Part shown: positions 14,236-55,639 of the stretch, one piece after another
How the letters are laid out: every line of letters begins with the position of its first letter
Numbering within the stretch: position 1 is the first letter of the stretch
Source: Helicobacteraceae bacterium
GTDB lineage: Bacteria; Campylobacterota; Campylobacteria; Campylobacterales; Helicobacteraceae
Assembly: GCA_050874285.1 (NCBI GenBank)
Contig: JBNMKJ010000002.1
Coordinates: 16,374-80,373 of the forward strand
Length of the DNA: 64,000 nucleotides
Reading direction: 5' to 3'
Translations under genes and position numbers: made by a program
Notes under the pieces: model-generated
Databases searched by the model: none
The model's input: the letters and a program-made list of their open reading frames with translations, nothing else
What the model was told of the DNA's origin: nothing

Positions 14236-14332
14236 TGTCATTGCGAGATTCGGCAACGCCAAATCGAAGCAATCCAAAAAAATAAAAAAATAGATTGCCA
14301 CGATTTTGCTAATGTAAAATCTCGCAATGACG
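14236..14332. repeat. CGTC-type palindromic repeat doublet (inverted pair)
   Basis: tgtcattgcgag..gaagcaatcc followed by agattgccacg..ctcgcaatgacg. Confidence 0.85.
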
Positions 14333-14443
14333 GCGTGGGACGAATCTTTGCAAAAGTTTTGCTTCGTTTGGCTTTTGCCAAAAGTAGAGTATCATCTATT
14401 TCGCTATCGTGGGGGCGAATCAAATCGCAAATAAAGGAAATTT

Positions 14444-15001
14444 ATGGGAATCTTAAGTGTTATTTTATTGTCGTGTGCCTTAGCGGCGGACGCCTTTGCC
14501 GTGAGCCTTTGCAAGGGCTTTAGCGTGAAAAAAGTAGAGGTGCGCCACTGCGTAATCGTGGGGCTATATTTTGGCGGATTTCAGGCGTTAATGCCACTTT
14601 TGGGCTATTTCTTAGGCGTGGCTATCGGCTCATTTATTGCAACGATTGACCACTTCATCGCATTTGGCTTACTCGCGCTAATCGGGGCAAAAATGATTTA
14701 CGAATCCTTCTCACCGCAAACCTGCGAGGAAAACAGCGCGGAGTTTGGCTACCGCGCAATGCTTCCACTCGCCCTAGCCACGAGCATTGACGCTTTGGCG
14801 GTGGGCGTGAGCCTAGCTATCGAGGGTAGCAACATAGTGCTATGTGCCACGATTATCGGCGTCATCACGGCTTTGCTCTCAATCATCGCGCTAAAAATCG
14901 GCAATCGATTCGGACTATTTTTAGGCAACAAAGCCTCGCTACTAGGCGGGATAATCCTAATCGCACTGGGCGTAAAAATCTTGTGGGAACATTTGGGATA
15001 A
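14444..15001 (+). CDS. mntP: manganese efflux pump MntP family
   Basis: [32 protein letters not shown]; 6 TM segments. Confidence 0.9.
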
Positions 15002-15052
15002 ATTTATGCTAAAATTGCGCTTTTTAAATTTTAATCACAAAGGACAAATTCG

Positions 15053-15673
15053 ATGAAAAATCTAAGTGAAATCTTTAAGTTGCCCAAATGGGCGAAAATA
15101 TCTTTGGTGGCGTTAAGCGCAATCGCTTTTTCGCTTTTGGTGGCGGTGTTTGCTTTGCAAAGCTGGGCAGATTCGCAAGTCGAATCTGCGAATCTAACAT
15201 TTAGCAAAATAGATAGAGCAAAAAGCGCGGAGTTAGAAAATGGCTACGCTTATGAAGCAAAAGTGCATTTTCAAAGATTAGAATTTTTGCTCCGCTCAAA
15301 GTCTATCTCAAAAATCAACATAACAAATATTGCGTGGAGTGGCGTAGATTCAAGCGCAATTACTAGCTACGAATCCCACAATAATCGCCGAGTGAAATTC
15401 ACTACCACGCAAAATCTAGCCTTAGATTCAGGCGCGAATCTAGGCACTATGAGCTATAAAATAGATTTTAGTCCGTGTGCAAATGCGATTTTGTTTTATT
15501 ATATTAGCATTGTTTTTGCGGTGATTTTTGCTTATTTTGTTTTGGCAATTAGCGGAATCTCTATGCAACAAAAAGCAGAGGCGTCTTTAGGGGGGGGGGG
15601 AATTGCACTCTCAATCGCACCTCAATGCAAATCGCCCTCTTTGCTTCGCTCTACCTACTATTTTTCACGCTAA
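15053..15673 (+). CDS. membrane protein, N-terminal part of a G-tract-split gene
   Basis: TM-periplasmic domain-TM, then SLGGGGI and an unrelated frameshifted tail. Confidence 0.65.
   Translation: MKNLSEIFKLPKWAKISLVALSAIAFSLLVAVFALQSWADSQVESANLTFSKIDRAKSAELENGYAYEAKVHFQRLEFLLRSKSISKINITNIAWSGVDSSAITSYESHNNRRVKFTTTQNLALDSGANLGTMSYKIDFSPCANAILFYYISIVFAVIFAYFVLAISGISMQQKAEASLGGGGIALSIAPQCKSPSLLRSTYYFSR
15590..15600 (+). repeat. G11 phase-variation tract
   Basis: tcttta-GGGGGGGGGGG-aattgc; G9 or G12 fuses 15053 and 15625 into one frame. Confidence 0.9.
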
Positions 15674-53325: not shown

Positions 53326-53361
53326 ATCTAACATTTGCGAATCTAAGGGAGGCAGTCTAAA

Positions 53362-53568
53362 ATGGAAGCTGTGAAAGAGCAGAGCGTTTATGAAAAGCAG
53401 CTAGATTCAAAACTCGCAGAATTGCAATCCTGCCAAAGCCAAAAGGGCGTGGATTCGTGCCTAAAATGTGCGAATCTTATTGGCTGTGAGTTACGAAATA
53501 GCTATGTCGATGCTGTTTATCAAAGTATGAATGGCGGGACTAGCGGGGAGTTTGACTTTGATGGATAA
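53362..53568 (+). CDS. small Cys-containing conserved hypothetical protein
   Basis: ggagg Shine-Dalgarno; CQ..SCLKC..GCELRNSYVDAVY. Confidence 0.7.
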   Translation: MEAVKEQSVYEKQLDSKLAELQSCQSQKGVDSCLKCANLIGCELRNSYVDAVYQSMNGGTSGEFDFDG

Positions 53569-53683
53569 TGAGAATTTTTGTGCGAATCTAGGCACGATTC
53601 GCCGTGCGAATTTTGCGAATCTATGTGCGATTCGATATATGATTCGCCACGCCAAAAATACCAAAAAATAAAAGGAATTTAAC

Positions 53684-55639
53684 TTGAAAGATATATTTAT
53701 AACTTCGCCGATTTATTATGTAAATGACATTCCACACATAGGACACGCCTATACGACAATCGCTTGTGATGCGTTTAAAAAATATCAGATTCTTAAAGGC
53801 AACAATGCCATTTTGCTAACAGGCACAGATGAGCACGGGCAAAAGATAGAAAATAGCGCGAAAGCAAAAGGTAAAGCCCCACAAGAATACGCCGATGAGA
53901 TTAGCGCGAAATTCCGCAATCTGTGGGATTACTTTGGCATTGACTATGACTATTTTGTCCGCACCACAGATGATTACCACGATTGTGGCGTGAAACACGC
54001 TTTTGAGATTATGCAAAAAAAAGGCGACATTTATAAAGGGGAATATGAGGGCAATTACTGCGTGAGTTGCGAGACATTTTTTACCAAAAGGCAGCTAATT
54101 GATGGCGAAAAATGCCCAGATTGCGGGAAGCCCACCAAAGAGATAAAAGAAGAGAGCTACTTTTTCGCGCTAAGCAAGTATGAAAAGCGACTTTTAGCGT
54201 GGTATGCGGAAAATGAAGATGTGATTTTGCCAAAATTTAAGCGTAATGAAGTCATTAAATTTGTCGAAAATGGGCTAAGCGATTTATCCATTACGCGCTC
54301 GACTTTTAGCTGGGGCATTTCTCTGCCAAAAAGCGCGAATGATACCACGCATATCATTTATGTGTGGCTAGACGCGCTACTAAGCTATATCACGCCACTT
54401 GGCTTTGGCAATACGCGCAAGGAAAATAAAATGTCGCTATTTGAAAACGCCTATCATTTCGTGGGTAAGGACATTTTGCGATTTCACGCGATTTTTTGGC
54501 CTGCGTTTTTAATGAGCCTTGATTTGCCCCTGCCAAAGCGCATTTTCACGCACGGCTGGTGGCTGATTGAGGGTGCAAAAATGAGTAAATCTATCGGCAA
54601 TGTGGTGAATCCAAAGGATATTGCGGACGCATATAGCTTGGAGGTTTTGCGCTATTTTCTTTTGCGCGAAGTGCCTTTTGGGCAAGATGGCGATTTTGCG
54701 ATTCGCGCATTGATTGAGCGCACAAACGCCGAGCTAAGCGACAGCTTGGGGAATTTGCTAAATCGATTGCTTGGAATGAGCGAAAAATATTTCGCACTAA
54801 AGATTGAGGCAAATGATTTCACAGGGCTAAAATTCGAGCAAAAAAGCGTGGATTCAATCATAAAATCGCTAGATTCGCTAATGGAAAATATGACGCCAAA
54901 TCGCTATCTAGAGGAACTTTGGAAGCTATTTGACTTGGCAAATGGGCTAATCACGCAATATGCGCCGTGGGAGATGATGAAAGAGGGCAGGACGCGCGAA
55001 GTGGCGAGTTTGCTCGTATTTATCGCAAATATTTTGGCAAAAGCCGCGCTTTTAATCTACCCCGTGCTACCCAAAAGTGCCAAATCTATGGCGGAATCGC
55101 TGGGAATTACGCTTGATTCATACAGCGACTTAATAGCGCAATCCAAATATCTAATGAAATTTAATCTCACCAAAATTCCGCCTTTGTTTCCTAAAATAGA
55201 GGTGGATTCGTCATTGCGAGGGAGCGAAGCAACCAAAGCAATCCACGAATCGTCAAAAAGTGGCTCGTCATTGCGAGATTCGGCAACGCCGAATCGTGGC
55301 AATCCACTTGATTCTATGCCACAAATCACTATAAAAGATTTTCAAAAAATCGACATTCGCGTGGGCGAAATCTTAGAGGCGAATCGCATAGAGGGAAGCG
55401 AAAAATTGCTAGTATTTCAAATCGATTTTGGCGACTTTGGGAGGCGACAGATTGTCTCTGGAATCGCGCAATTTTACGCGCCAAATGAACTCATCGGCAA
55501 AAAAATCTGCGCCATTATCAATCTAAAACCCACTAAAATTATGGGCGTAAAAAGCGAGGGAATGCTACTAACAAGCGAGGATTCGCAGGGCGTAGCATTG
55601 CTTTTTGCTACTACAAGCTCGGGAGGAAAGGTCAGCTAA
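53684..55639 (+). CDS. metG: methionine--tRNA ligase (long form with C-terminal tRNA-binding domain)
   Basis: PIYYVNDIPHIGH, GTDEHGQKI, CPDC knuckle, KMSKS, C-terminal DIRVG..KSEGML. Confidence 0.98.
   Translation: MKDIFITSPIYYVNDIPHIGHAYTTIACDAFKKYQILKGNNAILLTGTDEHGQKIENSAKAKGKAPQEYADEISAKFRNLWDYFGIDYDYFVRTTDDYHDCGVKHAFEIMQKKGDIYKGEYEGNYCVSCETFFTKRQLIDGEKCPDCGKPTKEIKEESYFFALSKYEKRLLAWYAENEDVILPKFKRNEVIKFVENGLSDLSITRSTFSWGISLPKSANDTTHIIYVWLDALLSYITPLGFGNTRKENKMSLFENAYHFVGKDILRFHAIFWPAFLMSLDLPLPKRIFTHGWWLIEGAKMSKSIGNVVNPKDIADAYSLEVLRYFLLREVPFGQDGDFAIRALIERTNAELSDSLGNLLNRLLGMSEKYFALKIEANDFTGLKFEQKSVDSIIKSLDSLMENMTPNRYLEELWKLFDLANGLITQYAPWEMMKEGRTREVASLLVFIANILAKAALLIYPVLPKSAKSMAESLGITLDSYSDLIAQSKYLMKFNLTKIPPLFPKIEVDSSLRGSEATKAIHESSKSGSSLRDSATPNRGNPLDSMPQITIKDFQKIDIRVGEILEANRIEGSEKLLVFQIDFGDFGRRQIVSGIAQFYAPNELIGKKICAIINLKPTKIMGVKSEGMLLTSEDSQGVALLFATTSSGGKVS
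55209..55305 (+). repeat. two tandem CGTC-type palindromic repeats in frame inside metG
   Basis: 55209-55244 cgtcattgcgag..aaagcaatcc and 55266-55305 cgtcattgcga-gattcggc-aac-gccgaatc-gtggcaatcc. Confidence 0.9.

Follow-up and report, generated by a model that had tools for sequence, protein, structure and literature searches.

Introduction

SsnA of Neisseria meningitidis, a 94-amino-acid single-domain GIY-YIG protein (CDD cd10448), binds the NTS hairpin, CGTCATTCCCGCG...CGGGAATCYRG, as single-stranded DNA (ssDNA) only and on one strand only, and cuts a few nucleotides upstream of it (Chenal et al., Nat Commun 2025, PMC11893778). Cleavage needs the three bases that precede the stem, and binding depends most on the C that follows it; the stem sequence matters, the identity of the loop does not, and paired or unpaired extensions at the loop position are tolerated (PMC11893778). 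Site-specific cleavage of ssDNA beside the hairpin is the sole experimentally established activity of the Ssn family, and in Neisseria it restricts transforming ssDNA (PMC11893778). The ssn genes are typically flanked by repeats, 81% of the genomes with more than 200 recognition hairpins (Ssn-related motifs, SRMs) have the gene, and the authors raised the idea that the cassette is, or has been, mobile (PMC11893778). Here, we describe an abundant family of hairpin units in a 64,000-nucleotide stretch of DNA (hereafter the window), C2:16374-80373 of a 1.99-Mb, 50-contig assembly with 40.8% G+C (G000) whose nearest named relatives are Helicobacteraceae metagenome-assembled genomes and which represents an uncultured gut lineage of that family.

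The closest repeats described earlier are the CGTC-tagged repetitive extragenic palindromic (REP) sequences, a superfamily that includes Neisseria dRS3 and Rickettsia RPE-4 and RPE-6 and that was reported without a transposase and in one epsilonproteobacterium, Sulfurovum (Di Nocera et al., BMC Genomics 2013, PMC3733652). The sequence family of our genome does not appear in the text of that study, and its host phylum, Campylobacterota, is not mentioned in the main text of PMC11893778. A search of the literature by the head sequence GTCATTGCGAG returned matches to unrelated primers only. We propose that the units are probably the cognate recognition hairpins of an Ssn-family GIY-YIG ssDNA endonuclease encoded at C9:57624-57917, because the gene lies in a cluster of units, gene and units co-occur among genomes, both match the published descriptions, the units carry a single-strand signature, and a Y1 transposase is lacking. 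Most likely, the system is not a new one but a variant of the known Ssn/SRM (CGTC-REP) system that stands out by its unusual structure, its very high abundance and the large share of its units inside genes. An earlier sequence-only reading of the window had suggested that selection acts on the single-strand structure of the units and that a dedicated mobilising enzyme is encoded elsewhere; taken as a whole, it is partly supported.

Results and discussion

Abundance and anatomy of the units

Each unit reads T-Y-GTC-ATTGC-GA-(variable hairpin)-GAA/GTG-GCAAT-C-Y-A. An unpaired head, T-(C/T)-GTC, precedes a basal stem of 5 bp (5' arm ATTGC, 3' arm GCAAT), and the unpaired tail, C-(C/T)-A, follows it. 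Above the basal stem, GA on the 5' side and a linker of GAA, GTG or AAA on the 3' side form a 2x3 internal loop, on which sits a distal hairpin (G...C) of 3-11 bp. In the head, the G is conserved at 95% and the T and C are invariant, and they are preceded by C in 66% and by T in 30% of units. The C directly after GCAAT is conserved in at least 90% of units, the next position is C in 66% and T in 32%, and the one after that is A in 97%.

The window has 26 matches to the head GTCATTGCGAG with at most one mismatch, where 1.2 are expected, and none of 100 shuffles reached 26. Genome-wide there are 658 exact heads (about 0.7 expected), and a regular expression finds 781 units with 514 distinct cores; these genome counts rest on that expression, and among the 150 of 2399 covariance-model candidates that were scored all were significant. 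Run on the window without filters, a covariance model trained on 120 distinct genomic 38-nt units recovered 21 units at E<=0.01, and inspection by regular expression and by eye added about 10 decayed or truncated copies. The window total is thus about 21 intact units, about 10 that are decayed or truncated, and one unit of a sister family. The abundance of REP-like hairpin units, as the sequence-only reading had described it, is confirmed. The first unit begins at 14236/14237 and the last finishes at 55304-55306, in agreement with the limits of 14236 and 55305 given there; singles, inverted doublets and arrays all occur, and each of the six stem pairs quoted there is found in units of the window.

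The claim that the ends are fixed holds for the main family but does not extend to two sister families, which have GTCAT...GAG...GA...ATCC in common with it and basal stems that co-vary. One, ATACT/AGTAT, has 130 heads in the genome and a single member in the window (26082-26119); the other, ATTCT/AGAAT, has 44 heads in the genome. A scan of the window with Rfam returned tRNAs only and no family that matches the units, and a known RNA family was rejected as their identity.

The fold of the GTCATT strand

In 404 of the 781 units the entire core forms a perfect Watson-Crick hairpin with a stem of 3-10 bp, whereas shuffled cores never exceed 6 bp. The alignment of the 38-nt class has 94.8% of its cells paired, against 76.0% in shuffles, and 311 cells with changes on both sides of the pair, against 97.5; none of 500 shuffles reached either value. 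When the partners were slid by 1-3 columns as a control, at most 50% of cells paired. Both partners change in seven of the eight inner-stem pairs, each of which takes up to four Watson-Crick types, and the basal stem ATTGC/GCAAT is 99% paired and nearly invariant. Compensatory change, on which the sequence-only reading had staked its case for a constrained fold, is therefore significant. That the core is always self-complementary, as was also claimed, is true of most units, but about a third have imperfect stems or tandem G.A pairs. The 33-nt classes, which seem unpaired, are in fact stems with tandem G.A pairs, such as GTGAGT-gaa-ACGAAC.

The mismatches and loops indicate which strand and which nucleic acid fold. 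In near-perfect stems we counted 59 G.A, 45 G.T and 18 A.C mismatches, and the asymmetry between G.T and A.C on the GTCATT strand (45:18) is significant (p=9e-4). Triloops cap 223 of the 404 perfect hairpins; 154 loops are GNA triloops, and the closing pair is C-G in 374 of 527 cases, giving the d(C-GNA-G) type. Mini-hairpins of this type are exceptionally stable in DNA. Taken together, the covariation, the mismatch asymmetry and the DNA-type loops suggest that it is the GTCATT strand, as DNA, that folds. Because the covariation is strong, G.T exceeds A.C, and the loops are of the DNA-hairpin type, we take the single-strand fold to be under constraint, in line with the sequence-only reading.

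A mutational process, either intrastrand template switching (quasipalindrome correction) or copy-choice between units, might keep the cores self-complementary in place of selection on the fold. Its traces would be cores that vary in length (3-11 bp) as well as in sequence, differences between orthologues that cluster at the apex (the left unit of the doublet at 40278-40372 and the second metG unit are examples), and entire cores replaced at identical junctions whose flanks are 80-96% identical, all of which are seen. As the whole explanation it is nevertheless rather unlikely: it accounts neither for the invariant head, basal stem and trailing C across bacterial families nor for the strand-asymmetric mismatch spectrum, and about a third of the units tolerate mismatches that correction should erase. 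Rather than an alternative to recognition by an Ssn-type enzyme, the process is a contributor to it, and core pairing may be kept partly by template-switch correction besides selection.

A GIY-YIG gene embedded in the units

On another contig than the window, at C9:57624-57917, a single-copy gene encodes a 98-amino-acid protein whose sole domain is GIY-YIG (PF01541, residues 7-80, E=2.5e-16). Among the open reading frames (ORFs) of a crude caller (1719 ORFs, 87.5% coding), this gene is one of just nine that are bordered on either side by units no more than 120 nt away. Upstream, six full units lie within 440 nt and one more match, a partial one, at about 470 nt; on the downstream side, there are eight pattern matches within 525 nt, four of them with full head and tail. 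The cluster as a whole has about 15 unit matches, 10 with full head and tail, and an identical two-unit module, directly repeated, brackets the gene on both sides. The orthologues are 95-98 amino acids long and have the motifs YIL...NGTLY.GVT...RIYEHK...REKQ.K in common. Against NCBIfam the protein gave a weak sub-threshold match, and against the PDB it matched the UPF0213 entry 1ZG2 alone (E=0.024).

Gene and units tend to occur together. Homologues are present in 11 of 22 unit-bearing Campylobacterales genomes, one of them as a fragment, and in 1 of 24 unit-free genomes (Fisher p=5e-4, with kinship ignored); the lone unit-free homologue, in G051, is of the UPF0213 type and belongs to another clade, and setting it aside leaves 0 of 24. 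Units flank the gene in eight of the nine other genomes that have an intact copy. They lie on both sides in G000, G008, G009, G073 (two copies), G324, G393 (two copies), G265 and G016 and on one side in G349, and there are none in G387. Of the roughly 22 units in the whole genome of G009, about seven are found no farther than about 250 nt from the gene. In G265 and G016, the units around the gene come from families with other co-varying basal stems.

The reading frame itself varies in some relatives. In G265 and G016 (genus g8), the ssn-like frame lacks its usual stop and continues through several downstream units, giving ORFs of 219 and 195 amino acids with tails such as CHSEALAEES and CHSERSEES. 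In G007, which has 161 units, a fragment of about 29 residues at the syntenic locus (C18:8682-8765) is apparently a pseudogene. A GIY-YIG profile search of the 11 gene-less unit-bearing genomes, including G332 with its 675 units, found UvrC only, and a second divergent small GIY-YIG gene serving the sister families or the gene-less genomes was rejected on this ground.

In size, in forming dimers and arrays, and in their extragenic preference, the units resemble classical REPs, which raises the thought of a RAYT (Y1/HUH) transposase as their mobiliser. The likeness to the REP/BIME systems of E. coli and Pseudomonas extends to short hairpins with an unpaired tag, dimers of two unit types in alternating orientation, arrays and a repeat-flanked nuclease gene; those systems, however, have a GTAG tag and a Y1/HUH enzyme, whereas here the tag is YGTC and both GTAG and Y1 are lacking. 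PF01797 (Y1/RAYT) had no match in this genome or in nine others of the genus, three of them unit-rich, while positive controls matched. Outside the genus, at the G016 locus C13:29031-29312, a 175-amino-acid Y1/HUH (RAYT-like) gene lies about 4 kb from the ssn-like gene on the same contig and adjoins a type I restriction subunit; we found no units around it. With PF01797 missing from all 10 genomes of the genus and no units around the sole Y1 gene of a unit-bearing relative, a RAYT/IS200 mobiliser was rejected, and we give it scarcely any credence. A multi-copy insertion sequence was rejected as well, since all that self-BLAST of the 1719 ORFs brought up were paralogues of surface proteins and ORFs that consist of unit arrays. 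Where the sequence-only reading had pointed to a RAYT/Y1 or a GIY-YIG gene flanked by units, the genome thus offers a single 98-amino-acid GIY-YIG gene inside a unit cluster. A dedicated gene outside the window does exist, as that reading foresaw, but the mobilising role it assigned goes beyond the established activity of the family, ssDNA cleavage.

Comparison with Ssn recognition hairpins

The system shares with Ssn/SRM a single-domain GIY-YIG protein of about 95 amino acids whose gene is embedded among its own hairpin repeats, hundreds of repeat copies per genome, and the existence of repeat-rich genomes that are gene-less. The hairpins themselves correspond: an unpaired (C/T)GTC head, a stem that starts with AT, and ATC-C after it (NTS CGTCATTCCCGCG...CGGGAATCYRG against CGTCATTGCGAG...GCAATCCA here). 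The conservation profile parallels the mapped determinants of binding and cleavage, with a hypervariable distal part, and a free distal hairpin is what the modularity of Ssn in vitro predicts. The roughly 500 natural variants of the distal stem on an invariant base amount to a natural mutational scan that agrees with this modularity, and they could help in designing substrates for the programmable cleavage of ssDNA.

Likewise, the units share with the CGTC-REPs a CGTC/TGTC head, first stem pairs A-T then T-A, a CCA-like tail, the occurrence of dimers, clusters and intragenic copies, and the lack of an associated Y1 transposase. In the CGTC-REP families described, the stem runs uninterrupted for 8-9 bp and the loop has 4-5 nt, whereas the stem here is bipartite and most loops have 3 nt. 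Taking 'head' as the tagged end, the prevalence of tail-facing over head-facing dimers (180 versus 111) is also the opposite of theirs.

These comparisons suggest how the units may work. The GTCATT strand would fold when single-stranded, be it in incoming transforming DNA or in intermediates of replication or repair. The enzyme would read only three parts at the base of the fold, namely the unpaired Y-GTC head, the basal stem ATTGC/GCAAT together with the internal loop above it (GA/GAA or GA/GTG), and the C that directly follows this stem, and would nick a few nucleotides 5' of the head. The distal stem-loop would go unread and would serve to nucleate and stabilise a fold beyond the reach of a 5-bp stem. 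Because the basal stem would need a stable mini-hairpin to form, pairing of the distal part would be constrained while its sequence is free; any stable mini-hairpin would suffice, and its sequence and length could drift or be swapped as long as self-complementarity is kept. That this particular protein cuts these units seems plausible, and its role may be to restrict or segment transforming ssDNA in a lineage that is naturally competent.

Several observations weigh against recognition by an Ssn-type enzyme. The published degenerate SRM pattern, HGTCWYN(0-2)YYVSBRHN(0-5)WNVSBRGN(0-2)RNCYNB, which serves that paper as a search heuristic rather than defining the family, finds none of the 781 units; its seven matches in the genome overlap no unit. 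The basal stem, below a conserved internal loop (GA/GAA) and a distal hairpin of 3-11 bp that is hypervariable, has only 5 bp, whereas the Neisseria hairpin that was tested has a stem of about 9 bp and is inactive when the stem sequence is altered. One gene would have to serve three basal-stem families. Eleven of the 22 unit-bearing genomes are gene-less, among them G332 (675 units), G132 (227) and the close relative G006 (318 units, in an assembly only 87% complete), and the statistic for the association of gene and repeat ignores phylogeny. The protein is likened to SsnA by size, domain and descriptions of architecture only; protein and units are known from sequence alone, and the activity is that of the Neisseria and Wolbachia homologues. 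Further misfits are the bipartite stem, the dominance of tail-facing dimers, and the share of units inside genes, more than one third (37%, in frame within ORFs) against the 2% reported for Neisseria.

Since the SRM pattern misses all 781 units, the census of Ssn-associated repeats is incomplete, and the Campylobacterales illustrate this: 63 of the 401 genomes sampled carry the family.

Turnover of units among relatives

The 63 genomes belong to 19 of 63 genera and hold up to 675 copies each; reversed-pattern controls gave 0 in all Campylobacterales genomes scanned. In the genus of our genome, the exact-pattern counts are about 575, 521, 318, 161, 20 and 2, with 0 in the remaining four genomes. 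Among three close relatives, whose flanks are 78-99% identical, single units and blocks differ in presence or absence; the occupancy that the sequence-only reading proposed to compare between strains thus differs between close relatives. At the dxs site, three unit-free genomes (G001, G003 and G009) are empty and 75 nt shorter, and four others have different units, of which those in G007 look more decayed.

Cores are also swapped between close relatives at one and the same site. Unrelated cores at identical junctions, with flanks 80-96% identical, occur at window position 31177 and in the right unit of the 40278-40372 doublet, and outside the window at C12:50950 and C29:22817. Because substitution cannot yield an unrelated core of different length while the flanks diverge by 5-20%, the cores must have been replaced wholesale, presumably by recombination, by copy-choice between units, or by repeated insertion at one place.

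The patchy distribution (0 to about 675 copies with the same ends, in 63 of 401 genomes and 19 of 63 genera) and the differences in occupancy between close relatives, with insertions in conserved genes such as dxs, would also be expected if the units were non-autonomous elements of the miniature inverted-repeat transposable element (MITE) or REP-like kind. The flanked GIY-YIG gene would then be the mobiliser and unit-gene-unit the autonomous form, with the nuclease excising and inserting hairpins or driving homing-like copying. This proposal overlaps with recognition of the units by an Ssn-type enzyme and adds transposition to it, and the architecture is like that of an insertion sequence or REPtron, a likeness also remarked on in PMC11893778. 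We nevertheless find transposition doubtful. No strand-transfer activity is known for a nickase with GIY-YIG as its sole domain, gene-less genomes retain large families, and arrays can expand through local duplication. Target-site duplications were sought at filled and empty sites, but neither these nor a clean excision footprint could be defined, as the sites differ by more than the hairpin. Excision and empty sites were also sought in public metagenome assemblies (Logan contigs), which gave no evidence of either; the contigs break at the repeats, and apparent 'joints' were cross-matches between copies.

Short of transposition, nicking of the recognition hairpins by Ssn could promote the spread and turnover of the units. 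In one such scheme, a nick 5' of the head would be followed by copy-choice or short-patch conversion on the invariant 11-13-nt ends, which would propagate units and overwrite cores. We regard this scheme as unlikely, although it would jointly explain the core swaps at identical junctions, the uniform ends across families and the in-frame inserts; if true, it would make a GIY-YIG single-strand nickase, for the first time, the engine of a repeat family and would answer what moves CGTC REPs. The gene is intact in G000 and G008, decayed in G007 and apparently absent from G006, and these differences among four close relatives, together with their gains, losses and core swaps of units, make it testable, by comparison and by experiment, whether Ssn spreads or maintains units.

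Arrangement and genomic context

In the genome, 210 units stand alone, 113 doublets occur, and arrays reach 10 units. Pairs at gaps of at most 60 nt are tail-facing in 180 cases, head-facing in 111 and head-to-tail in 82, with favoured gaps of 15-18 nt, 14-19 nt and 11-13 nt (direct), respectively. Doublets often pair a GTG-type with a GAA-type unit. A bias with respect to the replication strand was looked for and not found (241:207, p=0.12).

Between genes, convergent spacers hold 164 units and divergent spacers of similar total length 24; tandem spacers hold 254, of which 61% are closer to the upstream stop codon, and units share the orientation of the flanking genes in a ratio of 159:95 (p=7e-5). 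This distribution is what one would expect of 3'-end hairpins that stabilise or terminate transcripts, as E. coli REPs do, and it could be read as evidence that the units act mainly as RNA elements. However, purifying selection on any insertion predicts the depletion from promoter spacers equally well, and 37% of the units lie inside ORFs in both orientations. The hairpin is not followed by a T-run, the downstream flank being A/T-rich with A at least as common as T; the loops are of the DNA-type GNA rather than GNRA or UNCG; no Rfam family matches; and the tested enzyme of the family leaves RNA untouched (PMC11893778). We therefore consider a main function in RNA quite improbable.

The 288 units within ORFs of at least 100 amino acids include many deep inside proteins: 92 ORFs have a unit at least 50 codons from either end, and 163 of 203 such inner units use one frame per orientation. 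In one orientation they encode peptides of the form SLRG...EAIQ/KQS, in the other DCH...SRND or ...LAMT. Pfam domains lie on both sides of the insert in five hosts (CarB, ValRS, Dxs, a PBP1-type protein and a type IIG restriction-modification enzyme), the insert in LigA falls within the adenylation domain, and in YidC and an autotransporter a domain is found on one side of the insert only. In-frame peptide inserts affect about 5% of genes, among them the essential genes carB, valS, ligA, dxs, metG and that of the PBP1-type protein. By description, this is akin to the Rickettsia palindromic elements (RPE), which also sit in frame in many housekeeping genes and add short hydrophilic peptides. 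RPE-1, however, exceeds 100 nt, whereas the units here are short and also abundant between genes as dimers and arrays. The housekeeping inserts make this a second independent large-scale case after the Rickettsia elements. An analogy with integron attC sites, suggested by the fixed ends around a variable but paired middle, was dropped without a formal test, the units being dispersed between and within housekeeping genes and not in cassette arrays.

Units of the window

The first element of the window is a tail-to-tail doublet whose halves are separated by an 18-nt A/T-rich spacer. The left half (14236..14276, + strand) has a GAA linker and the core GATTCGGC-aac-GCCAAATC and scores 53.2 bits with the covariance model (E=1.4e-8), and the right half (14291..14332, - strand) has a GTG linker (47.7 bits). 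Three intact singles lie on the + strand. The one at 19822..19861 (GTG linker, core GACTTGC-ttta-GCAAGTC, 47.1 bits) has an empty orthologous site in G006, G007 and G008. The one at 26246..26288 has a GAA linker and the core GGGCGAATC-gca-GATTCGCGC (40.2 bits). At the site orthologous to the third (31177..31218, 44.9 bits), G006 and G007 have unrelated cores and G008 has no unit. The sister-family unit at 26082..26119, with its co-varying basal stem ATACT/AGTAT, also lies on the + strand and adjoins a separate 125-nt repeat.

From 31594 to 32094, covariance-model hits and inspection reveal an array of about eight units in both orientations. Its intact members lie at 31594-31630 (-), 31694-31735, 31745-31785 and 31968-32009, and its decayed or truncated ones at 31646-31685, 31838-31867, 31903-31951 and 32057-32094. 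An intergenic cluster of four units follows at 33413..33795, placed by the covariance model and the sites of relatives: a unit of the 33-nt class with tandem G.A pairs at 33413-33449 (-), a decayed unit at 33455-33490, and a tail-to-tail doublet at 33694-33734 (+) and 33757-33795 (-). The spacer, about 500 nt here, is shorter in relatives: G006 has 145 nt, which include a single, different unit, G007 has 84 nt and lacks units there, and in G001 the length is about 0 nt. Another cluster of four, at 35245..35418, consists of units at 35245-35278 (-), 35290-35320 (+, decayed), 35327-35363 (+) and 35382-35418 (-); in G008 the two middle units are missing and the first carries a compensatory change from T-A to G-C.

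The tail-to-tail heterodimer at 40278..40372 joins a GAA-type unit at 40278-40319 (+, 46.8 bits) to a GTG-type unit at 40332-40372 (-, 60.9 bits). It is kept in G008; the core of the right unit is unrelated in G006, and both units are missing from G007. A further cluster, at 42477..42713, begins with a truncated head of the ATACT family at 42477 and continues with units at 42526-42566 (+), 42629-42661 (-) and 42675-42713 (+). Finally, covariance-model hits and translation place two direct units in frame within metG (55209..55306, + strand). They encode SSLRGSEATKAIH and SSLRDSATPNRGNP in the linker of methionyl-tRNA synthetase that precedes the C-terminal tRNA-binding domain, and relatives have one unit, other units or none at this site.

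Neighbouring repeats

Separate palindromic repeats of about 125 nt (caatttgttctggggtaatcatttgcg...) directly adjoin units at window positions 14082-14208 and 25922-26045. They have many copies in G006 and G008 and also occur in frame in ORFs beside units. Many intragenic units form the middle module of composite in-frame inserts, preceded by this repeat and followed by a third one (AAATTCAAGTATTTTTGATGAGAAATCGGGGTT...GACGAAGCGA), as at C1:10700-11250, C23:14700-15240 and C7:48470-49010 of our genome. At least three repeat families have therefore jointly colonised genes here.

Fast-evolving linkers rich in GATTC/GAATC, in proteins as well as in spacers, are usual landing places of units (window 38838-38955, 47174-47209 and 30551-30577; C3:59300-59450 of our genome), and their length varies among close relatives. 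Because units land in such linkers, alignments of filled with empty sites are ambiguous. Another palindromic repeat (ccccctcccttg...aagggggctagggggtggg) occurs in relatives where our genome has a unit or a low-complexity linker, that is in the G008 orthologue of window 31150-31180 and in the G007 orthologue of window 38838-38955.

The ends of the contigs are repetitive too: 84 of 100 have at least 60 nt in common with other ends (for example those of C6, C41, C42, C2, C19 and C47). The assembly breaks there in further repeat families of 100-250 nt, such as GGGGGAGAGCCTCGCTTATCCGATTCTAGCAAAAAATCGGCGGACGCACTACTGCGTCC, and not in an insertion sequence.

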